DNA of 57,390 bases from Patescibacteria group bacterium (GTDB lineage Bacteria > Patescibacteriota > Minisyncoccia > UBA6257 > UBA9933): assembly GCA_038063335.1 (NCBI GenBank), contig JBBTVF010000045.1:1-57390 (forward strand), in the 5' to 3' direction. Shown here one piece after another: positions 19,422 to 56,862 of this stretch. A program made the position numbers and the translations under genes. Below the pieces are notes generated by a model. That model was given only the letters and a program-made list of their open reading frames with translations, did no database searches and was not told the DNA's origin. Numbering within the stretch: position 1 is the stretch's first letter; every line of letters starts with the position of its first letter.

Positions 19422-19757
19422 TTAAATTTTTAATCCCGCTTTCCGCGCGGCATCGGCAATAACTTTAACGCGACCGTGATATTTATAATCACCCCTGTCA
19501 AAAATCGCGCTTTTTATTCCTTTTTCAGATGACTTTTTTCCAATAATTTCTCCCAATGATGCCGAAGCGTCTTTTGAAGAAACTTTTGACGCGCTAACCA
19601 ATGTTTTGCCGGTTGAATCATCAATTAATTGCGCGTAAATATAACGATTACTTTTAAAAATAGAAAATCTCGGCTTCTCCGGCGTTCCTTTAATTTTAGC
19701 GCGCACGCGCGTTTTTCTACGTTCTCTAATTTTATTTAATAATTTCTTTTTATTCAT
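19422..19757 (-). CDS. rplR: ribosomal protein L18
   Basis: [18 protein letters not shown]...[11 protein letters not shown]. Confidence 0.95.
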
Positions 19758-19905
19758 CCCTCACCCTTCAAAGATTTTATTATAAATTTTAATAAAATTT
19801 ATAATATATAATAATTGAAGTTTTTATTTATTGGTTTATTTATATTCTTTATTTTTATTATTAATCCCCGCCTTTCAAATTTTTTATCTTTGAAGGGTGA
19901 GGGAT
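19756..19905. mobile_element. F-family palindromic element F1 (putative MITE) at the rplF stop / rplR start
   Basis: ATCCCTCACCCTTCAAAGAT ... ATCTTTGAAGGGTGAGGGAT, 20/20 bp inverted termini. Near-identical to 32854-33003. Confidence 0.85.
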
Positions 19906-20450
19906 TATTTAGTCGCTCCGGCTGCTTTCTTACCTTCTTTTCTTTTTATTATTTCTCCTTGATATCTAATTCCTTTACCTTTATACGGTTCAGGCTTTTT
20001 AAAAGCTCTTATTTCAGCCGCCGTTTGTCCGACTAAAAATTTGTCAATTCCGGAAATTTTAATCGTATTTTTATCAACCACTATTTTTATTCCTTTTTGA
20101 GGAGCCACTTTAATAGGATGAGAAAAACCAAGATTCAACAATAAATTATTGCCGTCCATTGAAGCGCGGTAGCCGACTCCTTCAATTTCCAATATTTTTT
20201 CAAATCCTTCTTTCACTCCGATTATAGCATTATTCATCAACGCCCTCATAGTTCCCCAGTTGGCTTTTGATTGCTGAGATTCGTCCAAAATAGACACCAT
20301 AATCTTTTTATCTTGAATATCAACTTTAACGCCAGACATAATTTTTAATGAAAATTCCCCGTTTTTCCCCTTAAAATTAAAAACATCGCCGTTAATTTCA
20401 ACGTCAACATCCTCAGGTATAATTATTGGTCTTTTTCCTATTTTAGACAT
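19905..20450 (-). CDS. rplF: ribosomal protein L6
   Basis: MSKIGKRPIIIPEDVDV...; operon position. Confidence 0.95.
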   Translation of the reverse strand: MSKIGKRPIIIPEDVDVEINGDVFNFKGKNGEFSLKIMSGVKVDIQDKKIMVSILDESQQSKANWGTMRALMNNAIIGVKEGFEKILEIEGVGYRASMDGNNLLLNLGFSHPIKVAPQKGIKIVVDKNTIKISGIDKFLVGQTAAEIRAFKKPEPYKGKGIRYQGEIIKRKEGKKAAGATK

Positions 20451-22480: not shown

Positions 22481-22665
22481 TTGTTTATTATCGTTAATAT
22501 TCTCGCAATTGATTTTTTAACGTTTTTAATTTCTTTAATATTCTTGACTTTACCATAAAATAAATCAACTTTTAATTTCCTTAGTTTTCCCTGATATTCA
22601 GACAGATTTTTCTTAAGCTCCAATAACGACCAATTTTTCATTTGTTTAATTTCTTGTTTTTTCAT
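22477..22665 (-). CDS. rpmC: ribosomal protein L29
   Basis: 62 aa, helical, in the position between L16 and S17. Confidence 0.88.
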   Translation of the reverse strand: MKKQEIKQMKNWSLLELKKNLSEYQGKLRKLKVDLFYGKVKNIKEIKNVKKSIARILTIINK

Positions 22666-22807
22666 CCCTCACCCTTCAAAGATTGCTTGTAAATTTTATA
22701 AAAATTTACAAATTAAATCTTATGAATATTTAATTTATTTTATTTATATATAACATAAAAATATTTTATTTCCCCAAATTCTTCATTATCTTTGAAGGGT
22801 GAGGGAT
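22664..22807. mobile_element. F-family palindromic element F2 at the rplP stop / rpmC start
   Basis: Same 20-bp perfect termini. The interior resembles 24731-24875, including the hairpin CTTGTAAATTTT..AAATTTACAA. Confidence 0.85.
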
Positions 22808-23217
22808 TATTCTTCCACTATTCTTGTTTTAATCGGCAATTTATGGCCGGCCCTTCTCATGGCTTCTCTCGCTATTTCCTTGCTCACACCGTCCATTTCA
22901 AATAAAATCCTGCCTGGTCTTACCGGAAAAACATAATGGTCAACCGCCCCCTTACCGCCTCCCATCGTTACTTCCGGAGGCCTTTTTGTAATCGGTTTAT
23001 CGGGAAAAATTCTTATCCAAATTCTTCCTCCTCTTTTTGTAAAATGAGTGATCGCTTTCCTTGCGGCTTCTATCTGCCTTGAATTAATCCAGGCGCTTTC
23101 CATAGCTTGAATGCCAAAACTGCCGAAACTTAAATATATTCCTCTTGTTTCCGTTTGGCGTTTTCGCGACCTCCCCTTTTGCCATTTTCTATGTTTTACT
23201 TTTTTTGGCATTAACAT
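22807..23217 (-). CDS. rplP: ribosomal protein L16
   Basis: [16 protein letters not shown]. Confidence 0.95.
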
Positions 23218-24432: not shown

Positions 24433-24732
24433 TTAAACTTTTTTATCCTCTGTTTTCTTTTCTAATTCCTTTTGCATTTTTCCGCCGTGTCTGATGAATT
24501 TTCTCGTTAAAGAGAATTCTCCTAGCCGATGGCCAATCATTTCTTCGGTTACTCTCACACTAATAAAATTCTTGCCATTATGAACGCCAAACGTAAAACC
24601 AACCATTTCTGGAGAAATTTCCGAATCGCGCGCCCAAGTTTTAATAATCGTCGGGTCGCCCGATTTCAATTTTGACATCTTTTTTAATAATTTTTGGTCA
24701 ACATAAGGACCTTTTTTTGAACTTCTACTCAT
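24433..24732 (-). CDS. rpsS: ribosomal protein S19
   Basis: [12 protein letters not shown]...GHRLGEF. Confidence 0.95.
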
Positions 24733-24875
24733 CCCTCACCCTTCAAAGATTGCTTGTAAATTTTTATAAAATTTACAAGTTAAACCTTATGAAGATTAAA
24801 TTAATTTATTTTATATATAACATAAATATTCTACCTCCCCCAACTCTTCTTAATTATCTTTGAAGGGTGAGGGAT
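24731..24875. mobile_element. F-family palindromic element F3 at the rplB stop / rpsS start
   Basis: Same 20-bp perfect termini. Confidence 0.85.
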
Positions 24876-25699
24876 TATTTTCTTCTTTTAACTATCATTT
24901 TATTGCTCCACTTCTTCTTATTCCTTGTTTTTCTTCCGCCGGTAATTTTACCCCATGCTGTTTTCGGCTTTCTTGTTCCACGCGGCTGTCTACCTTCGCC
25001 ACCGCCGTAAGGATGGTCGCAAGGATTCATCGCGGTTCCTCTAACTGTCGGCCGAATGCCCATTCCTCGCGAACGACCAGCTTTACCGATATTCGTCAAA
25101 CTCCATTCAGAATTGGAAACTTGTCCCAGAGAGGCAAAATTATCCCATTTTATCTTTCTTACTTCTCCCGAAGAAAGTTTTAAATTCGTCCAGCCGTTTT
25201 CCTGGGCTAAAACTTGCGCGTAAGATCCGGCCGATCTTGCCAACACCCCGCCCGCGCCTTTATTTAATTCAATATTGTAAATAGAATATCCAACTGGAAT
25301 ATTTTTCAACAATAAACGGTTTCCCTCTTTAAGTTCGGCGTTTTCCGAAACTAAAATCTCATCTCCGACTTTCATATTTTTATTGGCTAAAATATACGAA
25401 CGCTCTCCATCGCGATAAATAATTAAAGCAATAAAGGCCGTCCTGTACGGGTCGTATTCTATCGTTTCAATTTTAGCCGGAACATTCAGTTTATTTTGCT
25501 TGAAATCTATTATTCTGTAAAGTTTTTTATTGCCTCCGCCCTGGTGGCGAACCGTAATTCTTCCTTGATTATTTCTGCCCGAACAATTCGGCAATCTTTT
25601 TACAAGCGCCTTAAACGGTTCAACCATACTCAAAACTCCCCGATATGTCGGAACTGTCATATTTCGCCTTGATGGAGTTGTTGGTTTGTATTTCTTCAT
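24875..25699 (-). CDS. rplB: ribosomal protein L2
   Basis: MKKYKPTTPSRR start chosen. The track's 7 extra codons run into a heptamer repeat. GGGEGR..PRG motif present. Confidence 0.95.
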   Translation of the reverse strand: MKKYKPTTPSRRNMTVPTYRGVLSMVEPFKALVKRLPNCSGRNNQGRITVRHQGGGNKKLYRIIDFKQNKLNVPAKIETIEYDPYRTAFIALIIYRDGERSYILANKNMKVGDEILVSENAELKEGNRLLLKNIPVGYSIYNIELNKGAGGVLARSAGSYAQVLAQENGWTNLKLSSGEVRKIKWDNFASLGQVSNSEWSLTNIGKAGRSRGMGIRPTVRGTAMNPCDHPYGGGEGRQPRGTRKPKTAWGKITGGRKTRNKKKWSNKMIVKRRK

Positions 25700-30481: not shown

Positions 30482-30832
30482 TTACACAAACTCAATTATC
30501 GCCATCTTGGCGGCATCATTCTTTCTGACTTTTGCCAATTTGATTATTCTCAAATATCCCCCTTTTCTTTCGGTATATCGCGGCGCGATTTGATAATACA
30601 ATTTTTGTCCCGCTTTATTGCTTAATCTTGATAAAATAATCCTTAAAGACGCCACGCTTTGTTTCTTGGCAAGCGTGACTAATTTTTCCGTTGCCGATTT
30701 AATTTCTTTAGCTTTCGCTTCCGTAGTTTCAATTTTTTCCTTAATGATTAAATTGGCGATTAAACTTTTTAAAAGAGCCCGGCGCTGACCCCTTGCTCTA
30801 TGAAATTTTCTTCCCTTTTTAAGATGCTTCAC
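30482..30832 (-). CDS. rplQ: ribosomal protein L17 (GTG start created at the element boundary)
   Basis: (M)KHLKKGRKFHRARGQRRALL matches the L17 N-terminus. The GTG uses the terminal G of element E3. Confidence 0.9.
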   Translation of the reverse strand: MKHLKKGRKFHRARGQRRALLKSLIANLIIKEKIETTEAKAKEIKSATEKLVTLAKKQSVASLRIILSRLSNKAGQKLYYQIAPRYTERKGGYLRIIKLAKVRKNDAAKMAIIEFV

Positions 30833-30952
30833 CCCCACACCATAACGAGTTTATATCTATTACAATATTATATTTAATATGATAATAAAATTTCACTCTT
30901 ATTTTTATACTATTATTAATTTATTCTCCCCACAACTCGTTTGGTGTGGGGG
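30832..30952. mobile_element. E-family palindromic element E3 (121 bp) between rpoA and rplQ
   Basis: CCCCCACACCATAACGAGTT ... AACTCGTTTGGTGTGGGGG termini, AT-rich interior, direct TTCA/TTCA flanks. Confidence 0.85.
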
Positions 30953-32390: not shown

Positions 32391-32855
32391 TTATACTCTT
32401 CTCTTTTTTGGCGGACGCGGACCGTTGTGCGGAATCGGCGTCACGTCTTTTATTGATAAAATGCTGAATCCCTGACCCGCTAAAGATTTCAAAGCGGAAT
32501 CTCTGGCGCTACCAACTCCTTTCATCACCACTTCAATTTCGGAAAAACCGAATTTCTTTAATTTTTCAGAGATAGCGGCTACCATTTTTGAAACCGCAAA
32601 CGGCGTGGCCTTTTTAGGCCCTGAAAAGCCCAAAGAGCCGGCGGAAATCCACGCAACCACATTGCCTTTTTTATCGGTTGCCGTAAGCATTGTGTTGTTA
32701 TAGCTAAAATTAACGTAAATCACGCCAATGCCTATTTTCCCAACCCCTTGTCCGCTTTTTTTGACGGAAGATTTTTTTACCATCGTTTCTTCCAATTTCT
32801 TGCCTTCTTCCAAAATATCTTTTTCAGTTTTTTCTATAACTTTTTTTTGTCCCAT
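32391..32855 (-). CDS. rpsK: ribosomal protein S11
   Basis: NNTMLTATDKKGNVVAWISAGSLGFSG. Confidence 0.95.
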   Translation of the reverse strand: MGQKKVIEKTEKDILEEGKKLEETMVKKSSVKKSGQGVGKIGIGVIYVNFSYNNTMLTATDKKGNVVAWISAGSLGFSGPKKATPFAVSKMVAAISEKLKKFGFSEIEVVMKGVGSARDSALKSLAGQGFSILSIKDVTPIPHNGPRPPKKRRV

Positions 32856-33003
32856 CCCTCACCCTTCAAAGATTTTATTATAAATTTTAATAAAATTTAT
32901 AATATAGAATAATTGAAGTTTTTATTTATTGGTTTATTTATATTCTTTATTTTTATTATTTATCCCTGCCTTCCAGATTTTTTATCTTTGAAGGGTGAGG
33001 GAT
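32854..33003. mobile_element. F-family palindromic element F4 at the rpsM stop / rpsK start
   Basis: Same 20-bp perfect termini. Differs from 19756-19905 at only ~6 positions. Confidence 0.85.
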
Positions 33004-33386
33004 TACTTTAGATCCACTTTTCTTTTTCCGCTGCCGACTGTTTTTCTAACATTACCGCGAATTGTCCGAGAATTTGTTTTTGTTCTTTGTCCCCTAACCG
33101 GCAATTTTCTTTCATGCCTCGAGCCTCTGTAACACTTTATTTCTTTAAGCCTCACGATATTGCCCTTAATAACTTGGCGCAATTCGCCTTCTATCTTATG
33201 ATTTTTTTCAATTAATTGTTTGATTTTATTAGTTTCTTCGGAAGTCAAATCCTTCGTTTTTTTCTCCGGGTCAACTCCGGCCCCCGTTAAAATATTAACA
33301 GCCGAAAAACGGCCTATGCCATAAACATGAGTTAAGGCTATTTTTATTTTTTTATTGTCCGGAATATTGATACCTAATAAACGCAT
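33003..33386 (-). CDS. rpsM: ribosomal protein S13
   Basis: MRLLGINIPDNKKIKIALTHVYGIG. Confidence 0.95.
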   Translation of the reverse strand: MRLLGINIPDNKKIKIALTHVYGIGRFSAVNILTGAGVDPEKKTKDLTSEETNKIKQLIEKNHKIEGELRQVIKGNIVRLKEIKCYRGSRHERKLPVRGQRTKTNSRTIRGNVRKTVGSGKRKVDLK

Positions 33387-38168: not shown

Positions 38169-38255
38169 AATAGTATTCGCTAATAATGCGAATTTTTAAC
38201 AAATAATGCTAATTTATTCGCGTTATTAAATTTATATTCGCGTTATTCGCGATTA
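38169..38255. repeat. ATTCGC-rich spacer element (H family, copy 1) between fpg and pyrG
   Basis: AATAGTATTCGC...AATAATGCTAATTTATTCGCGTTATT...ATTCGCGTTATTCGCGATTA. Its end supplies the last codons and stop of fpg. Confidence 0.7.
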
Positions 38256-39223
38256 CTCTGGCATTTGGGACAATAATGTGCCGACCTTCCTCCTATTCTA
38301 ATTCTTTTTATCATACTCCCGCAACGTGGACAAGGTTCGCCTTCATGCTGATAAACCCCCACACCATAACGAGAATAATTATTTTTTTGCATAGAAAACA
38401 CCGATTCTCGTTTGGTGTGGGGGTAAACTTTTAACATTTTAGCATACCCGCCCAATTTTCCAAAAGCGTCGCGAAAATCGCTTATTGAAGTTCCGCGCAA
38501 TTTCACGGCCTTTTCTAAAATTTCTTTCATCGCCTTGTATAAGTTTTTAAGTTCGTAAGTTTTAAGTTTATAAGTTTGCCTTAGCGGATTAATTTTCGCC
38601 TGCCATAAAATCTCATCGGAATAAATATTGCCAATACCAGCGATTATTTCTTGGTCCATTAAAACCTGCTTAATCTTGCGTTTTTGCGACTTTATTAACT
38701 TTACAAACTTTATAACATTAAAACTTTTGTCCAGCGGCTCCGGTCCCAAATTTTTTAATTCCGGTAAATTTTCAATTTCATCTTTTGGTCCGAATAAAAT
38801 CTTGGCGAATTTTCGCAAATCCGAAAGTCCAACTTGCCAGCCATTGTCTAAATAAAGAATAAAATGAATATAATTATTAACTTTTTCTTCTAACGCGCCC
38901 TTGATTAAACTTCTCACTATTACTTTTTGTTTATCCTGAGCTTTGCCGAAGGACCATTTTCCATACAGCAAATGCCCTGTCATTTTTTGGTGAATTAATA
39001 ATAAAAAATTGTTAGTTAAATAAATAAGTATATTTTTCCCGCGGCGTTTTACGTCAATAATCTTCAATCCCTTAATTTGCTTTTCCAATTTATTGGGTTT
39101 TGTCCGCCAGCTGACGGATTTTATAAGTTTCGGCGCATTAAACCAAACGCCGACAATTTTTCTGCCGACGATTTTTTTCTTTAAGTCGTTTACAATTGTC
39201 TCAACTTCTGGCAACTCCGGCAT
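38243..39223 (-). CDS. mutM: formamidopyrimidine-DNA glycosylase (carries a 24-codon element-derived insert)
   Basis: MPELPEVE N-terminus (start chosen at 39223), H2TH region, C-terminal zinc finger CPRCG...CPKC. Confidence 0.9.
   Translation of the reverse strand: MPELPEVETIVNDLKKKIVGRKIVGVWFNAPKLIKSVSWRTKPNKLEKQIKGLKIIDVKRRGKNILIYLTNNFLLLIHQKMTGHLLYGKWSFGKAQDKQKVIVRSLIKGALEEKVNNYIHFILYLDNGWQVGLSDLRKFAKILFGPKDEIENLPELKNLGPEPLDKSFNVIKFVKLIKSQKRKIKQVLMDQEIIAGIGNIYSDEILWQAKINPLRQTYKLKTYELKNLYKAMKEILEKAVKLRGTSISDFRDAFGKLGGYAKMLKVYPHTKRESVFSMQKNNYSRYGVGVYQHEGEPCPRCGSMIKRIRIGGRSAHYCPKCQSNRE
38356..38423. mobile_element. E-family palindromic element E4 (68 bp) inside fpg, in frame
   Basis: CCCCCACACCATAACGAGAA ... 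TTCTCGTTTGGTGTGGGGG with direct TAAA/TAAA flanks. 68+4 = 72 nt = 24 codons. Confidence 0.85.
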
Positions 39224-39224
39224 A

Positions 39225-40928
39225 TTATTCAACCGCCACTCTTAAAACCTCTTCCAAAGTGGTTTGTCCTGATTCTATCTTTTCTAACCCGTCTTCAAAC
39301 ATAAGTCTCATTCCCTCCTGTCGCGCCTTATTTTTAATGATGTTCGTCCCTGATTTGGCGATAATCAATTCACGAATAGCGTCAGAAACATAAAGAATTT
39401 CAAAAAGCCCTATTTGTCCGCGATAACCGGAAAATCCGCAAACGCCGCATCCTTCGCCCTGGTAAATCATTTCCGGCATTTTCGCTTTAATATCCATACT
39501 TTTTAGATGACTTTGTAAAACGTTTAATAATTCTTTACCGGGCTTTATTGAATGAACGCACGCAGTGCAAATTTTACGCACCAAACGCTGAGCAATAACC
39601 ACGTTAAGCGTTGAAGAAATTAAAAACGGCTGTACGTTTAAATCAAGAAGTCGGGGAATCGCGGTTGGCGCATCATTGGTATGAAGAGTTGAAAGTAAAC
39701 GATGTCCGGTTAAAGAAGCGTTTACCGCAATATCTGCCGTTTCTCCGTCGCGGATTTCACCAACCATAATAATATCCGGATTCTGACGCACAAACGAACG
39801 TAATCCCGAAGAGAAAGTAAGCCCAGCCTTGACATTGACCTGCGTTTGATTCACTCCCGGAATATCATATTCTATCGGGTCTTCAACGGAAACAATATTA
39901 ACTTTTGGCGTATTAAGAATCCCCAAAATGGCGTAAAGCGTGGTTGTTTTTCCGGAGCCGGTCGGGCCGGTCACTAAAATCATTCCGCGCGGTTTTTTAA
40001 TAGCCATTTCTATTTTAGGCAATTCGCTTTGCGAAAAACCAAGTTCGTAAAGTGTAAGCGGTCGCAAAGAACCTTTTAATAAACGCATTTCCCCTTTTTC
40101 GCCGTGAAAAGTCGGAATTACCGAAACGCGAACATCGACAAATTGGTCTTCAATCGGAAATCTAAAACGGCCATCTTGCGGTGCGTTGTGAATGTCTATC
40201 TGCAAATTCGACAAAACTTTTATCCTCGCTATTAAAATCGGCGCGATAACCGGCGGCAAATTCAAAATTTCCTGCAAAATCCCGTCTATGCGATAACGCA
40301 CTATCAATTTATTTTCAAAAGTTTCGAAATGAATATCAGACGCTCCCGAAGTGGCGGCGTGCTCTATAATTGTATTGACGATATTCACAATCGGCACCGC
40401 TTCTATCATTTTTGACATATCCAGCGCTCCGGCAATGCCTATGGATTCTTTAAGATTTTCTTCAATAACTTTTCCGAATTCTTCGTTAATTTTCTTTTTA
40501 TATTGTCTCAAGCCGAATTTTAAATCGGATTGCGACATTAAGTAAATGTCCAACCAGACGTTAAGCAAAGTCCGAAGATAATTAATGGTATAAAAATCTT
40601 CCGGGTCAAGCATCGCCAATTTTCCGCGTTTTTCTTTCGGATTAAATTCAAAAAGAATCACGCCGCGGCTTTTAGCAAAAGCTTCGGGAATTAATTTTAA
40701 AACGTCTTGAGAAATATTAACCGTGGAAAGATTAATTTGCGAAACATTAAAAAATTTGGCAATGCTTCCGGCAAGATATTTTTCATCAATAAATCCCTTG
40801 CCAATAAGAATATCCAAAACCAAACGATTACTACGAACCGCTTCTTCTTCGGCCGCCTGATAATCATGTTCGCTCGCCAATCCGGTAGATTCAACTATTT
40901 TTTTGATGTCCTCGGATAATAAATGCAT
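39225..40928 (-). CDS. pilB: type IV pilus / type II secretion assembly ATPase (PilB/GspE family)
   Basis: Walker A GPTGSGKTTT, VGEIRD, tetra-Cys CTAC...CGVCGFSGY. Confidence 0.9.
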   Translation of the reverse strand: MHLLSEDIKKIVESTGLASEHDYQAAEEEAVRSNRLVLDILIGKGFIDEKYLAGSIAKFFNVSQINLSTVNISQDVLKLIPEAFAKSRGVILFEFNPKEKRGKLAMLDPEDFYTINYLRTLLNVWLDIYLMSQSDLKFGLRQYKKKINEEFGKVIEENLKESIGIAGALDMSKMIEAVPIVNIVNTIIEHAATSGASDIHFETFENKLIVRYRIDGILQEILNLPPVIAPILIARIKVLSNLQIDIHNAPQDGRFRFPIEDQFVDVRVSVIPTFHGEKGEMRLLKGSLRPLTLYELGFSQSELPKIEMAIKKPRGMILVTGPTGSGKTTTLYAILGILNTPKVNIVSVEDPIEYDIPGVNQTQVNVKAGLTFSSGLRSFVRQNPDIIMVGEIRDGETADIAVNASLTGHRLLSTLHTNDAPTAIPRLLDLNVQPFLISSTLNVVIAQRLVRKICTACVHSIKPGKELLNVLQSHLKSMDIKAKMPEMIYQGEGCGVCGFSGYRGQIGLFEILYVSDAIRELIIAKSGTNIIKNKARQEGMRLMFEDGLEKIESGQTTLEEVLRVAVE

Positions 40929-43654: not shown

Positions 43655-44839
43655 TTACTTTCTTTTTTTCCTCAAAAACGCCGGAATATCATACACGTCG
43701 TCCCAATTTCCGTTTTTTTCTTCGTTTATCATTTCTTCTTTTTCTTTTTTTTTTACGTCTTTGATGCCGCTTATCGCCGACATTTCAATTTTCTCTTTTA
43801 AATCTTTATTGGATGAAGGAATAATTTCTTCCGAAATAAAAAGATTCGGCAAAATTCCGTTGTTTGAAGATTTTACCACATCTCCGTTAAAATCCGCGGC
43901 TATTAAGGTAACTTTTAGCTGTCCTTTTTTAAGTTTGCGGTCATGATGGGCTCCAAAAATTATTTTTGCCGACGAATTGGCGTGTTCGGCAATCATTCTT
44001 GCCACGTCATTTATTTCGCTCATCTTCAAATCACGATGACCGGAAACGCTGAATAAAATTCTTTTTGCTCCATCAATGGAAATTTCCAAAAGAGGAGAAT
44101 TAATCGCCAAGTGAGCAGCCGTTGTGGCGCGCTCAGCCCCGCTGGAATAACCGATGCCGATAATTGCCGAACCGGCATTCTGAATTATGGCTTTTACGTC
44201 GGCAAAATCAACGTTAATAATTCCGGCAGTGGTAATCAAATCAGCCACTCCAATAACGGAATTTTTAAGAATCTCATCAACCGCTTCAAAGGCTTTCGTT
44301 AAAGAAGTATTTTGATTAATTACCGAAAATATTCGGTCATTAGGGATGGTAATTAAAGCGTCAACCTTGTCTTTTATTCTTGTTATTCCTTCTTCGGCTA
44401 TTCTTCGGCGTTCAAATCCTTCAAAAACAAAAGGTTTTGTGACCACGGCAACCGTTAAAATTCCCAAATCTTTGGCGATTTCCGCAACCACCGGTAAAGC
44501 GCCTGTTCCCGTTCCGCCGCCGAACCCGGCTGTTAAAAAAACCATATCCGCTCCGCTTAATACTTCGGCGATTTCCGCTTGATTTTCTTCGGCTGCCTGA
44601 CGACCCAAATCCGGATTCATTCCGGTCCCCAATCCCTTAGTAAGATTTTTCCCGATATAAACTTTCTTTCTGGAAATGCAAAAATTCAAATCTTGGACAT
44701 CCGTGTTAATAACAACGGAATCCGTGCCGCGAGGAAGTTCATCGCTCATTCTCGTTACGGCATTGCCGCCGGCCCCCCCGACACCGACGATTCTTATTTT
44801 TGCCAGATTGATATTTTTTGGTTTTTTTCTTTTTGCCAT
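43655..44839 (-). CDS. ftsZ: cell division protein FtsZ
   Basis: GVGGAGGNAV and GFGGGTGTGALPVVAEIAK. Confidence 0.96.
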   Translation of the reverse strand: MAKRKKPKNINLAKIRIVGVGGAGGNAVTRMSDELPRGTDSVVINTDVQDLNFCISRKKVYIGKNLTKGLGTGMNPDLGRQAAEENQAEIAEVLSGADMVFLTAGFGGGTGTGALPVVAEIAKDLGILTVAVVTKPFVFEGFERRRIAEEGITRIKDKVDALITIPNDRIFSVINQNTSLTKAFEAVDEILKNSVIGVADLITTAGIINVDFADVKAIIQNAGSAIIGIGYSSGAERATTAAHLAINSPLLEISIDGAKRILFSVSGHRDLKMSEINDVARMIAEHANSSAKIIFGAHHDRKLKKGQLKVTLIAADFNGDVVKSSNNGILPNLFISEEIIPSSNKDLKEKIEMSAISGIKDVKKKEKEEMINEEKNGNWDDVYDIPAFLRKKRK

Positions 44840-44977
44840 CCCTCACCTTTCGATGATTTTATTTATTTTTATATAAAAATAAATATTAATCAATCGAATT
44901 ATGTTAATTTATTTATATTTCTCATCCCATGTCCTCCAATTATAATTTTTAAAAATTATCCTCGAAGGGTGAGGGAT
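44838..44977. mobile_element. F-family element F5 (divergent) upstream of the ftsZ start
   Basis: ATCCCTCACCTTTCGATGAT ... ATCCTCGAAGGGTGAGGGAT (18/20 pairable). The interior is unrelated and holds two perfect AT palindromes. Confidence 0.75.
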
Positions 44978-44983
44978 TAAAAT

Positions 44984-46249
44984 TTAAGGCGTAAAATATT
45001 TAAAAATCTTCTTTAAATTTATAAAAGAAAACTTGTCTGAAATCGGCCATTCATTATTTCTCATCCATTGGTCTTTTGCCAATAAAAGCAATCCCAAAGA
45101 AACGGCGAATTCCGGGTCATTGACTTCGTTGTTTACATCCTGGTCAATAATTTCCATTTCACCAGCATCGGGAAATCCAATTTCAGCGGGAAGTTTTAAT
45201 TCTTCTTTAACAAGGTCAACGATTGACGGCATTTTCGCTCCGCCGCCGCAAAGTATTACCCCTGCCGGCAACCGGCCGTTCTTACCGATTAATTTTAACT
45301 CATTATTAACAAATTCAAAAATTTCCGTCAACCGGCTTTCAATAATTTCCGCGACTTCTCGGCGAGAAACAACAGATTTAAAATTTTTGTCAAGTTCGGA
45401 AATTTTCATACCGACTTTTTCTTCAATATCATCCGGTGATATTTTTTCCTTACTTGAAATTTCTTTAGCCAAGGCGTTTCCAAAAAAAATTTTAAACGTT
45501 TCCGCCAATTTAACCGAACATTTAAGGCCAATCGCCAAATCATTGGTAATGTGACCGGAACCAATCGGAAAACCGGCCGTATGCAATAGTTTCCCCTCTT
45601 CATAAACACTCATTGTGGTGGAGCCGCCGCCAATATCAATTAAAACCGCGCCTAAATCTTTTTTAATTTTTGTAAGAGTTGAACGGGAAGCCGCCAAAGG
45701 CCCGTAAATCAATCCGCTTATTTTACCGTCAAGCGTTTCAACTAATCTGGAAATATTTTTATAATTCTGCGAAGGAGCGTCTATAACCGCGCTATTGACT
45801 TCCAGCCGCGCGCCGAACATTCCCAATGGCTCTCGCGCGTCGCCGACGCCGTCAATAATAAATTCCCTGGTAATGGTATGAATAATCATTCTGTTCGGCG
45901 ACAGCTTAACGGCTTGAGACGCCTTAATCACCCTGTCAATATCGTCTTGGGAAATTTCGTTGTCAGCGCGCGAAACCGCCACTATCCCTTTTGAATTATG
46001 AGATTTAACGTTCGCTCCGCCGATATTTACGAAAATATTTTTTAACGCCGATTTATTAAGTGAAAATAAATTTTCAAAAATGCTTTTTAAAGAAAAAGAT
46101 GACTCGTTAATGTCGCTCACTTCCCCCTTGCGAATGCCGCTTGACGGACATTTAAAAGCGGCAATCAAAGATAATCTGCCGCCCTTCCCCGCTTCGGCAA
46201 CTAAAGCTTTAATTTTCGAAGTTCCTATGTCTAAAGAGGTGATGTACAT
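44984..46249 (-). CDS. ftsA: cell division protein FtsA
   Basis: Actin-fold: LDIGTSKIKALVAE, IDIGGGSTT. Confidence 0.88.
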   Translation of the reverse strand: MYITSLDIGTSKIKALVAEAGKGGRLSLIAAFKCPSSGIRKGEVSDINESSFSLKSIFENLFSLNKSALKNIFVNIGGANVKSHNSKGIVAVSRADNEISQDDIDRVIKASQAVKLSPNRMIIHTITREFIIDGVGDAREPLGMFGARLEVNSAVIDAPSQNYKNISRLVETLDGKISGLIYGPLAASRSTLTKIKKDLGAVLIDIGGGSTTMSVYEEGKLLHTAGFPIGSGHITNDLAIGLKCSVKLAETFKIFFGNALAKEISSKEKISPDDIEEKVGMKISELDKNFKSVVSRREVAEIIESRLTEIFEFVNNELKLIGKNGRLPAGVILCGGGAKMPSIVDLVKEELKLPAEIGFPDAGEMEIIDQDVNNEVNDPEFAVSLGLLLLAKDQWMRNNEWPISDKFSFINLKKIFKYFTP

Positions 46250-55314: not shown

Positions 55315-55941
55315 TTACAACGCCCCGCTGCCTAAGAATCCGTAAAGCCAGAAAATTATCGGAGTTATAAATTGAAATCCGAAAAAGATAAAAAATAACA
55401 AAATAAACATTCCGTATTGTTCCAACGCCGCCATATATTTTTCCGCTGACTTCGGCAAAAGCGCGAAAAGTATTTTTGAGCCGTCAAGCGGCGGAATGGG
55501 AACCAAATTAAAAACTCCCAACGCGACGTTTATTAAAATTATGATGTTTATAAAAAAAATAAACGGCTGACTGGCAAATCCGACGAAAATTAAAATTTTT
55601 AAAATTAAACTGAAAATAATCGCGATGGAAAAATTGCTCACTGGACCGGACAAGCCGATTAAACCGCTGTCCCTTTTCGGATTTTTTAAATACAAAGGAT
55701 TAAACGGCACCGGTTTTGCCCAGCCGAATAAAATCGGACTTTTAATCAGAAAAAGAGTGAATGGCAATAAAAACGAACCGAAAAATTCCAGATGTTTAAG
55801 CGGATTTAAAGTAAGCCGTCCCGCATTTTTAGCGGTCGGGTCGCCCAAACGATAAGCCATTATGCCGTGAGAAACTTCATGAATTATCACGGAAAATAAA
55901 AGCGCGATAAGTTGAAAAATTAAAACAATAAAATTATCCAT
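55315..55941 (-). CDS. site-2 protease family zinc metalloprotease (M50-like)
   Basis: HEVSHG plus NLVPIPPLDGSK; polytopic. Start chosen at MDNFIV because the track's extension reads through a tRNA. Confidence 0.8.
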   Translation of the reverse strand: MDNFIVLIFQLIALLFSVIIHEVSHGIMAYRLGDPTAKNAGRLTLNPLKHLEFFGSFLLPFTLFLIKSPILFGWAKPVPFNPLYLKNPKRDSGLIGLSGPVSNFSIAIIFSLILKILIFVGFASQPFIFFINIIILINVALGVFNLVPIPPLDGSKILFALLPKSAEKYMAALEQYGMFILLFFIFFGFQFITPIIFWLYGFLGSGAL

Positions 55942-55963
55942 AATCGGGTCGTCGGGAATTTCA

Positions 55964-56071
55964 CCCCCACACCAATTGGTCGGGATGCCGAGAATCGAAC
56001 TCGGGCAGCATGCACCCCATGCATGCATACTACCATTATATTACATCCCGTTTTGTATATTGGTGTGGGGG
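55964..56071. mobile_element. E-family element E5 (108 bp) carrying a complete tRNA-Pro
   Basis: CCCCCACACCAAT ... ATTGGTGTGGGGG termini enclose the tRNA at 55977-56050. Confidence 0.7.
55977..56050 (-). tRNA. tRNA-Pro (GGG), CCA encoded
   Basis: Cloverleaf: acceptor CGGGATG/CATCCCG, anticodon loop ATGGGGT, T-arm CCGAG-TTCGATT-CTCGG, then ACCA. Confidence 0.88.
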
Positions 56072-56126
56072 CGTGCCCGGGCCACACGCACCCCATGCGC
56101 GCACACTGCCATTATGCTACAGCCCG
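56072..56126 (-). pseudogene. 5' two-thirds of a second tRNA-Pro (GGG), truncated in the T-arm by element E5
   Basis: CGGGCTG-TA-GCAT-AATGGCA-GTGT-G-CGCGC-ATGGGGT-GCGTG-TGGC-CCGGG, then the element. A decayed 3' remnant (TGAAATT-CCCGA-CGACCCG-A) lies at 55942-55963. Confidence 0.6.
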
Positions 56127-56308
56127 CGCTTTGCTTGCGTTTTAATGCATTTCGTGCAAGCTAAAACACGCCCCGCCCCGGCGGGGTTCTTGGTAAATTG
56201 AAGATTTGGGTATTTTCTTTTTTTGGAAGTCGGATTGTAATTACCGCGAAGTTTTTTTCTCGTTCCGCGAATAATTGAACCCTTCTCGCAAATTTTACAT
56301 TGTCTCAT
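56117..56308 (-). CDS. rpmB: ribosomal protein L28 (zinc form)
   Basis: MRQCKICEKG...PNLQ...CTKCIK. Confidence 0.8.
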   Translation of the reverse strand: MRQCKICEKGSIIRGTRKKLRGNYNPTSKKRKYPNLQFTKNPAGAGRVLACTKCIKTQAKRGL

Positions 56309-56360
56309 GCGAATTTTATATAAATTTTTAAACGAAGTGATGAAAATTTATCTATAAAAT

Positions 56361-56633
56361 TCAGCACCCCGCCAAAGGCGTGGGTAGAATTTTATTATTT
56401 AATAATTTTTTAAACGCTTCGCCGGATTTATAACTTTTAATTTGTTTTTCTCTTTTTCTTGCTTCTTCTAATATCTTATATTCTTCCACTAAAATAATTT
56501 CAAGGGGTATATGCCTTATTAATGATTTAGTTTTACCGCTATTATGTTCTTTTAATCTTCTTTGAAGATTATCCGTATAGCCAATATAATGCCTACTTGT
56601 TTTTTTAGATTTTAGAATATAAACAAAATACAT
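56361..56633 (-). CDS. small GIY-YIG domain protein
   Basis: MYFVYILKS..RHYIGYTDNLQRRLKEHN. Start chosen at the internal Met. Confidence 0.8.
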   Translation of the reverse strand: MYFVYILKSKKTSRHYIGYTDNLQRRLKEHNSGKTKSLIRHIPLEIILVEEYKILEEARKREKQIKSYKSGEAFKKLLNNKILPTPLAGC

Positions 56634-56862
56634 ATTGCAGCCCCGCTTTCGCCTTGCTTCTTCGGGGCAAATTTTTTCTTTTAGAAAAAATTTGAGCCCC
56701 GATTGTTGGATTATCCCGGCAAAAGCCAAGTGGGTAAGCTCAATTTCAACCCGAAGATTAAAATACTGTTGCCTTCCCTTTTATAAATCCTTGATCCGAG
56801 AATCACAACCAAGGCTCATTATTATGATAAACAATTAAAGAAAAAAATCAATGTCAAACTTA

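Follow-up and report, generated by a model that had tools for sequence, protein, structure and literature searches.

Introduction

Integrative elements such as phages and genomic islands often hit the anticodon loop or the T loop of a tRNA gene, and restore the gene from attP. The locus described here shares with them a tRNA gene as target and an incoming DNA that compensates the damage. It lies in a contig of a Patescibacteria group bacterium (NCBI GenBank assembly GCA_038063335.1, contig JBBTVF010000045.1, positions 1 to 57,390 of the forward strand; this whole stretch of 57,390 nt is called the window), and consists of a tRNA-Pro(GGG) gene whose T loop is interrupted by an element with inverted-repeat ends that encloses a second, complete tRNA-Pro(GGG). 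Unlike the tRNA-integrating elements, inserts of this kind are only about 100 bp long and lack an integrase, provide a complete new tRNA instead of a matching 3' segment, leave both old halves outside as dead pieces, and use D loops as well. We consider it highly probable that a 108-bp element similar to a miniature inverted-repeat transposable element (MITE) broke the T loop of an ancestral single-copy tRNA-Pro(GGG) located between rpmB and an M50 protease gene, that this element carried the same tRNA in the same orientation, and that such insertions are recurrent in Patescibacteria.

The closest systems in terms of form are the bacterial MITEs (such as Correia/CREE, ERIC and RUP), with which the present family shares a length of 32–125 bp, terminal inverted repeats, short target duplications, many dispersed copies, the absence of an open reading frame (ORF) and hairpin-forming transcripts. 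It differs in that the interiors of its copies are mutually unrelated and that no cognate transposase was identified in the loci fetched for comparison (denoted by L numbers). In addition, a subset of copies holds a complete tRNA gene, occurs only inside a gene for the same tRNA and is flanked by a constant unequal pair of tetranucleotides; to our knowledge, this subset is unlike any MITE. Host DNA that is enclosed between transposon ends and can travel along with them is known from gene-capture units (ISEcp1/IS1380 units and plant Pack-MULEs), and the IS1380 family has ends starting with CC and duplications of 4–5 bp, which resemble the present termini. Here, by contrast, the cargo is exactly one tRNA gene with 0–13 nt of flank, and its destination is always the gene that it replaces. 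The full-text literature searched, which was partial, describes neither the family termini nor a tRNA gene lying within another of the same anticodon, and the wider pattern of same-anticodon nesting is, as far as can be told, undescribed.

Structure of the nested tRNA-Pro(GGG) locus

The locus is read on the minus strand, which is the tRNA sense; positions are those of the window. The element (55964–56071, 108 bp, without an ORF) is bounded by a perfect 13-nt inverted repeat that reads CCCCCACACCAAT at 55964–55976 and ATTGGTGTGGGGG at 56059–56071 on the forward strand, and correspondingly CCCCCACACCAAT at 56059–56071 and ATTGGTGTGGGGG at 55964–55976 in tRNA sense. Between these termini lies the inner tRNA-Pro(GGG) (55977–56050, minus strand), which is complete, has an encoded CCA, and displays Watson-Crick pairs in every stem, C1-G72 and A73. 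ARAGORN calls it at these positions, and the Rfam model RF00005 gives 57.9 bits, above the gathering score of 29. Termini and inner tRNA thus stand exactly where an earlier note, made from the sequence alone, had placed them. The first terminus is separated from the tRNA by an A/T-rich spacer of 8 nt (ATACAAAA, 56051–56058, minus strand), into which a promoter would not fit, and the second terminus abuts the CCA. In the predicted RNA fold the termini pair in a 15-bp helix around the inner cloverleaf (z = −5.1). The inner tRNA is presumed to be the functional gene.

The element is embedded in the remains of an older tRNA-Pro(GGG). Its 5' part, a pseudogene fragment (56076–56126, minus strand, 51 nt, standard positions 1–53), comprises the acceptor 5' strand, the D arm, the anticodon arm with an ATGGGGT loop, the variable region and the T-stem 5' strand. 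The next four bases, CACG (56072–56075, minus strand), occupy the place of the first four T-loop bases of the old gene (TTCG). On the other side of the element the tetranucleotide TGAA (55960–55963, minus strand), which recurs in the close relatives L008/L037 and in most tRNA-carrying copies elsewhere, precedes the 3' remnant ATT CCCGA CGACCCG A (55944–55959, minus strand). This corresponds to the last three T-loop bases, the T-stem 3' strand, the acceptor 3' strand and the discriminator, and differs from the intact CCCGG CAGCCCG A by three transitions. The earlier note had assigned 56072–56126 to the outer tRNA; the tRNA identity of this piece was borne out, while positions 56072–56075 proved to be the junction. 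Scored with the general Rfam tRNA model, the 5' fragment reaches 16.6 bits (E = 1.8) and remains under threshold, as expected for a truncated pseudogene, but it matches positions 1–51 of a tRNA-Pro(GGG)-specific hidden Markov model (HMM) with E = 7.8e-10 (nhmmer). The training set of this model includes the gene of the relative L003, and the HMM match and the identity to L003 reported below are therefore not independent.

The flanking genes are in close contact with the remnants. The final codons and the stop of rpmB (ribosomal protein L28; 56117–56308, minus strand) run into the outer fragment, with the stop codon TAG formed by its nucleotides 8–10, and a gene of the M50/site-2-protease family (55315–55941, minus strand) starts 2 nt past the 3' remnant. 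The latter served as synteny anchor in relatives, and its homologues (PF02163) carry the name Candidatus Wolfebacteria. The organization is not that of an integrase-type element: the insert is a 108-bp segment without an ORF, its neighbours are rpmB and the protease gene, and no integrase gene adjoins it. The 5' and 3' parts that are left of the old gene do not overlap, and the tRNA 3' segment is not directly repeated. No promoter-like site was found in 55800–56450, nor between rpmB and the inner tRNA.

The insertion in related genomes

The nested arrangement is repeated in three further independent assemblies of the same species (L001, L002 and L007), which rules out an artefact of assembly. 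L002, like L214, stems from samples of Hainich groundwater, in which this species is present. All four assemblies have the same inner tRNA sequence, and the T-stem 5' strand of the outer gene varies at two positions among strains (CCGGG, TCGGG, TCAGG). This agrees with the proposal of the earlier note that the element destroyed a tRNA gene and delivered its replacement: the split outer gene is a drifting pseudogene, and the carried gene is conserved.

An uninterrupted, GC-rich tRNA-Pro(GGG), which the note had suggested looking for next to rpmB, is present in L003, whose adjacent M50 protease is 92% identical. The single gene lies at the same place, directly upstream of the M50 gene, and matches the outer 5' fragment at 51/51 positions (L003:2423-2473). 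It continues with TTCGATT (T loop) CCCGG CAGCCCG A, which is exactly the 3' end predicted for the old gene. One intact tRNA-Pro(GGG) each, without element termini, was also found in L004, L005, L006, L010 and L011, and none of the relatives has the inner tRNA in place without termini. The locus is thus polymorphic for presence and absence, with the element in the window species and in L008/L037 and an intact target in L003, L004, L005, L006, L010 and L011. The possibility that L003 is a healed former carrier was discarded: when its upstream spacer was compared with the outer fragment plus element end, 165 of 500 shuffles scored as well.

In L008/L037 (protease 88–90% identical) the same element occupies the same T-loop position, flanked by CTTG (5') and TGAA, and the 3' remnant is undecayed (TGAA ATT CCCGG CAGCCCG A). 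The fusion of the rpmB 3' end to the tRNA is also common to both lineages. The shared insertion, remnant position and rpmB fusion show that the insertion predates the split of the two lineages; it is older than the window species, the remnant of which took its three transitions afterwards. The cargo, on the other hand, differs by lineage. The inner tRNA of the window has fully paired, A/T-richer stems, whereas that of L008/L037 matches the resident type throughout its 3' half and contains a G5-G68 mismatch, a make-up that suggests recombination between nested copies. The dead outer gene of L008/L037 contains an extra 53-nt palindrome-ended insert in the D arm, and in L008 its anticodon loop has received a second cassette with termini CCCCGTTAGAAAT...ATTTCTAATGGGG, which itself carries a third tRNA-Pro(GGG).

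Dead outer halves collect further short palindrome-ended inserts, as observed at L008:1150-1205, L037:1262-1315, L035:705-740, two sites in L047 and L090:1925-1945. These inserts are of the types TCCYGACGC...GCGTCGGAA, CCCTGT...ACAGG, CCTGCCTACCGGTAGGCAGG and TCCGCCAATTGGCGGA, and their variety implies several families of very small hairpin elements in these lineages.

tRNA-carrying copies in other genomes

The termini of the element, CCCCCACACC...GGTGTGGGGG, define a dispersed repeat family. A scan of species-representative genomes with the pattern CCCCCACACC-N(75-105)-GGTGTGGGGG returned at least 119 loci; all statements on copies in other genomes refer to the matches listed. These are overwhelmingly from Patescibacteria (Saccharibacteria, Moranbacteria, Doudnabacteria, Paceibacterota and Wolfebacteria), with a minority from Planctomycetota, Omnitrophota, Margulisiibacteriota and others.

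Fourteen distinct elements of the family contain an intact tRNA, which answers the call of the earlier note for other cargo-bearing copies. Every one of them interrupts a loop of a same-anticodon tRNA gene, now broken, with which its cargo is co-oriented, and none was found elsewhere. The loop varies: the D loop is interrupted in Arg-TCT (L089), Gln-CTG (L135) and Arg-TCG (L171), the anticodon loop in Ala-CGC (L099, L136, L148), Gly-CCC (L129) and Thr-CGT (L130), and the T loop in Lys-CTT (L145), Arg-CCG (L149) and Val-CAC (L196). At least 11 different anticodons show this destroy-and-replace nesting across Patescibacteria, and cargo and host gene are co-oriented in 11/11 anticodon classes (P = 5e-4). 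The nest at L130 has three layers and a perfect TAAA/TAAA duplication. In the young nest at L145, outer and inner gene differ at 2/52 and 0/19 positions.

The identity of the broken genes is supported by two comparisons. Homology between flank and cargo is significant in 13 of 17 cases, with 0/300 shuffles reaching the observed score, and typically ends 4 nt short of the element on both sides. When the element was removed in silico, ARAGORN found a junction-spanning tRNA in six tRNA-carrying cases, four of which match the anticodon of the cargo; in the other two, both Ala, the outer anticodon is destroyed. Among nested tRNAs, redundant isoacceptors with C34 account for 8/11 against a background of 43%, a weak excess (P = 0.047).

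The same outcome is produced by other repeat families, as in the second element of L008. A screen of all tRNAs of the fetched loci for flanking inverted repeats revealed a further case in L035/L047 (protease ~52% identical), where a tRNA-Pro(GGG) within CCCCGCAC(Y)AAATTT repeats is inserted at the anticodon stem/loop of a decaying tRNA-Pro(GGG). In L090 (Saccharibacteria), a tRNA-Pro(CGG) is nested in a broken tRNA-Pro(CGG) between termini TCCCTCACCC, which are those of a second family of the window. That family, MITE-like and about 180 nt long, with termini ATCCCTCACCCTTCAAAGAT...ATCTTTGAAGGGTGAGGGAT, has five copies between ribosomal-protein genes of the window (19743–19928, 22651–22830, 24718–24898, 32841–33026 and 44825–45000).

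Copies without a tRNA

In the window, the terminus motif of the first family (≤2 mismatches) has 8 matches that form four inverted pairs, against 0.68 expected, and 0/100 shuffles reach 8. Besides the nested element there are three copies without a tRNA: E1 (1093–1124), a minimal hairpin of 32 nt with flanks TCAA/TCAA; E2 (30832–30952), 121 nt long, with an unrelated A/T-rich interior and flanks TTCA/TTCA, between rpoA and rplQ; and E3 (38356–38423), 68 nt long with flanks TAAA/TAAA. The interiors of E1–E3 are mutually unrelated, and each copy has a perfect 4-nt direct repeat. At the site of E2, contigs of the same species either contain E2 or break there. E3 lies within the 3' part of a called ORF (38243–39232, minus strand), and may have altered or extended the C-terminus of that gene.

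In other genomes, identical flanks of 4 nt were found in 44 of 139 copies, compared with 4 copies at length 3 and 2 at length 5, and the 4-nt target duplication has the consensus T-N-N-A. A further 28 cargo-less copies have T-N-N-A on both sides with unequal inner bases. These flanks hint, as a conjecture, at flanks that are partly inherited from the donor site, as in cut-and-paste transposons that carry an overhang.

None of 146 cargo-less copies interrupts a tRNA, and decayed tRNAs in their interiors are not in excess over shuffled controls with relaxed ARAGORN thresholds; the view of the cargo-less elements of about 100 nt as decayed cassettes was dropped on this ground. A preference for the neighbourhood of tRNAs was not convincing either, with 4/146 cargo-less copies within 50 nt of a tRNA and about 2.5 expected from a rough hand estimate. 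General capture of neighbouring DNA found no further instance than tandem partial copies in two Margulisiibacteriota loci (L112:2714-2913 and L115:6558-6762), in which a tandem partial duplicate, formed by terminus and interior, is followed by a full copy, an arrangement that recalls the half-copies of L130. Viral contigs were set aside as carriers, their 7 matches being mostly GC-rich and unrelated. In the fetched loci, pairs of termini 0.7–4 kb apart, considered as autonomous copies, enclose ordinary genes, as judged by reading the longest translated ORFs.

A separate observation concerns L177:1971-2139, where a cargo-less copy is placed between nucleotides 3 and 4 of a tRNA-Ile(GAT). The displaced GGGCG(TG) stays upstream, and the tRNA is still called by ARAGORN, with the terminal GGG of the element re-creating the acceptor 5' end.

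Unequal junctions and other points against a simple insertion

Several results weigh against the simple insertion of a tRNA-carrying element. The copy in the window lacks a target-site duplication, with CACG at one end of the element and TGAA at its other end in place of the T-loop bases TTCG. Nearly all tRNA-carrying copies are likewise flanked by CTTG or CACG and by TGAA (rarely TAAA), and the unequal pair is already present in the young nest at L145, which places its formation at integration. No autonomous element or transposase with the family termini was found in the fetched loci. The decay of the outer gene in the window is also uneven, with 0/51 changes in the 5' fragment relative to L003, yet 3/13 in the 3' remnant. 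Finally, selection alone may not explain the absence of stray cassettes, and some targeting or in-place generation may act.

The unequal pair is constant over D-loop, anticodon-loop and T-loop insertions and over different tRNAs, whichever way the cargo is oriented relative to it, and it also flanks two cargo-less copies outside any tRNA context. The junctions lack two to four of the native loop bases; even so, insertions into the T loop and the anticodon loop alter the length by the same net amount as a 4-bp duplication. A plain transposition with a 4-bp stagger does not explain a pair that is this constant and that includes L145. Recombination between two element copies, which the earlier note had offered as a possible cause of the unequal flanks, is not indicated by them as a local event, since the same pair recurs in other genomes and at other tRNAs. 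The flanks are also not a decayed TTCG duplication, as the same flanks are found in D-loop and anticodon-loop insertions and in L145. Further models comprised a 2-bp duplication in a CTTGAA target, shifted element boundaries, a TCGA/TGGA target, Campbell-type integration of a cassette circle, long staggered cuts and inside-out or composite transposition; none of them fits all junctions.

Alternative origins of the nested genes

Three other origins were weighed against the arrival of a tRNA-carrying element. The inner tRNA could have been generated in place, that is, copied from the resident or a sister gene into an element that already occupied the loop. This might have happened, for instance, through a template switch while a break in the middle of the palindrome was being repaired, and later exchange with relatives would have made the copies differ. 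The restriction of tRNA-carrying copies to same-anticodon genes without any decaying stray cargo, and the near identity of inner and outer gene in L145 (50/52 and 19/19), would follow from such a process. Inner tRNAs of a different sequence type with compensated stem changes, however, as in the window, L130, L135, L136 and L171, fit import, and the boundaries of the cargo coincide with the tRNA ends, which a copying accident at the DNA level would not know. Similarly, the parallel outcome in several unrelated repeat families points to a process at the level of the host, and the cargo-less interiors are all different, as though filled secondarily, but the elements do not generally capture adjacent DNA, and no concrete repair pathway could be constructed that gives an intact copy inside the repeats. 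Overall, we regard generation in place as unlikely, albeit as the strongest of the three.

A history without any mobile element is very improbable. It would require that tRNA-Pro(GGG) was duplicated in tandem, that deletions then took place, and that the inverted repeats are just the leader–trailer processing stem of the survivor. The termini do pair in the predicted RNA fold, and some tRNAs have private flanking inverted repeats and no outer halves (e.g., the tRNA-Ala(TGC) of L177), but the repeats at the present locus are the conserved termini of a dispersed family whose cargo-less copies have target duplications. Moreover, the two outer pieces complement each other exactly as the 5' and 3' parts of a single gene that was cut at one point of a loop, and in all 11 anticodons with this topology the break coincides with the element ends. 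Least credible of all, by a small step, is that the outer tRNA is still functional and the element is removed as RNA, so that one transcript gives two tRNA-Pro(GGG). Intervening sequences in tRNA genes (bacterial group I introns and the multi-intron, split and permuted genes of archaea and red algae) similarly interrupt the D, anticodon or T loop by an insert that is closed by a helix, and the present insertions are always in loops and co-oriented. Removal of the element would leave an 11-nt T loop without the T-Psi-C bases, though, and ARAGORN finds no outer tRNA in the window after this removal in silico. The outer T stem pairs perfectly in L001/L002 (TCGGG/CCCGA), and the predicted fold retains part of it beside the terminal helix, whereas in L007 this stem is broken. 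The acceptor of the outer gene contains a C-A mismatch in the window, the outer gene of L008/L037 bears extra insertions in the D arm and the anticodon loop, and the Ala and Gly nests have lost the outer anticodon. Group I intron models give no match, no intron family being among the Rfam matches up to E = 10 in 55700–56400, and the bulge-helix-bulge geometry is absent, the junctions being single strands of 4 nt and 7 nt beside an uninterrupted helix of 13–15 bp. In contrast to the known intervening sequences, the interrupted gene decays without splicing rescue, and the insert holds the presumed functional gene.

Proposed course of events and implications

In the favoured scenario, the insertion of a tRNA-carrying element, the cassette would arrive pre-formed with its tRNA, as suggested by carried tRNAs that are of another sequence type than the resident, with compensated stem differences (the five cases above). 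It might enter by means of a transposase acting in trans, by homologous recombination that passes the entire nested allele from one relative to another, or both. In view of the CC ends and the 4-bp T-N-N-A sites, candidate transposases would be IS1380-, IS5-, IS701- or piggyBac-like enzymes. The inner tRNA would then be transcribed by read-through from the upstream promoter of the old gene, here probably that of the rpmB operon, in line with spacers of 0–13 nt that leave no room for a promoter in the cassette, and would be released by ordinary RNase P and 3' processing, in which the predicted leader–trailer helix of 13–15 bp formed by the termini might help. Only sense insertions into the same tRNA gene would express the cargo and make it indispensable, which would explain why only such copies persist.

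A bolder form of this scenario, which we put forward as a tentative and rather doubtful proposal, sees the cassettes as minimal selfish tRNA genes. Inverted-repeat cassettes of about 100 bp would invade a loop of the gene for the same tRNA in sense orientation, take over its promoter and make the host dependent, repeatedly and in layers. Targeting would depend on homology or be guided by RNA or DNA, with CTTG(CACG)/TGAA as the integration signature, and the class might possibly extend to phyla other than Patescibacteria. The locus resembles homing-type selfish elements (homing endonucleases, toxin-antidote systems) in that the element becomes indispensable by settling in and disabling the only other source of a function that is essential or useful, and in that one site is invaded repeatedly, as seen from the three-layered nest of L130 and from L008 with its two cassettes. 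It differs from them by the lack of a nuclease and of a demonstrated drive or biased conversion, and the dependence is brought about by the replacement of an RNA gene.

The locus can be described as a miniature transposon whose cargo makes up for the tRNA gene that its insertion disrupts, and the mechanism of integration could prove to be more novel. In the bacteria with the most streamlined genomes, it represents a route for the horizontal replacement of individual tRNA genes. This route may account for tRNA gene trees that are hard to interpret, and for the "extra" tRNA fragments of Candidate Phyla Radiation (CPR) genomes. The identity of cargo and insertion target, which is rare for a miniature transposon, makes homology-guided or RNA-guided target choice testable. 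In metagenome-assembled genomes, both the counting of tRNAs and the calling of pseudogenes will be confounded by nested and layered tRNA genes and the dead halves around them. The compact, promoter-less cassette closed by a leader–trailer helix could also serve as an engineering part.

Neighbouring features

At L001:5094-6542, in a strain of the same species, a gene for a ParB_N/HTH_ParB protein of 482 aa, which is not found in the window, is inserted between the M50 protease gene and rpsL. A conserved, structured-looking sequence of about 125 nt, GAGCCTTGGTTGTGATTCTCGGATCAAGG...CCAACAATCGGGGCTC, lies upstream of rpmB (window 56693–56817, minus strand), and is also present in L003 (2027–2150), L004, L006 and L037. 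It is preceded by a promoter-like pair recognized by eye (TTGACA, a 17-nt spacer and CATAAT). The window copy has no Rfam match at the gathering score and the L003 copy none up to E = 1; the sequence may be an undescribed non-coding RNA or an rpmB leader. A small ORF of the GIY-YIG type (T5orf172-like; 56361–56630, minus strand) is located between this RNA-like motif and rpmB in the window species (also in L001, L002 and L007), and is missing from L003, L004 and L006. A homing-endonuclease-like gene appears to have been inserted separately here, beside the nested tRNA locus.

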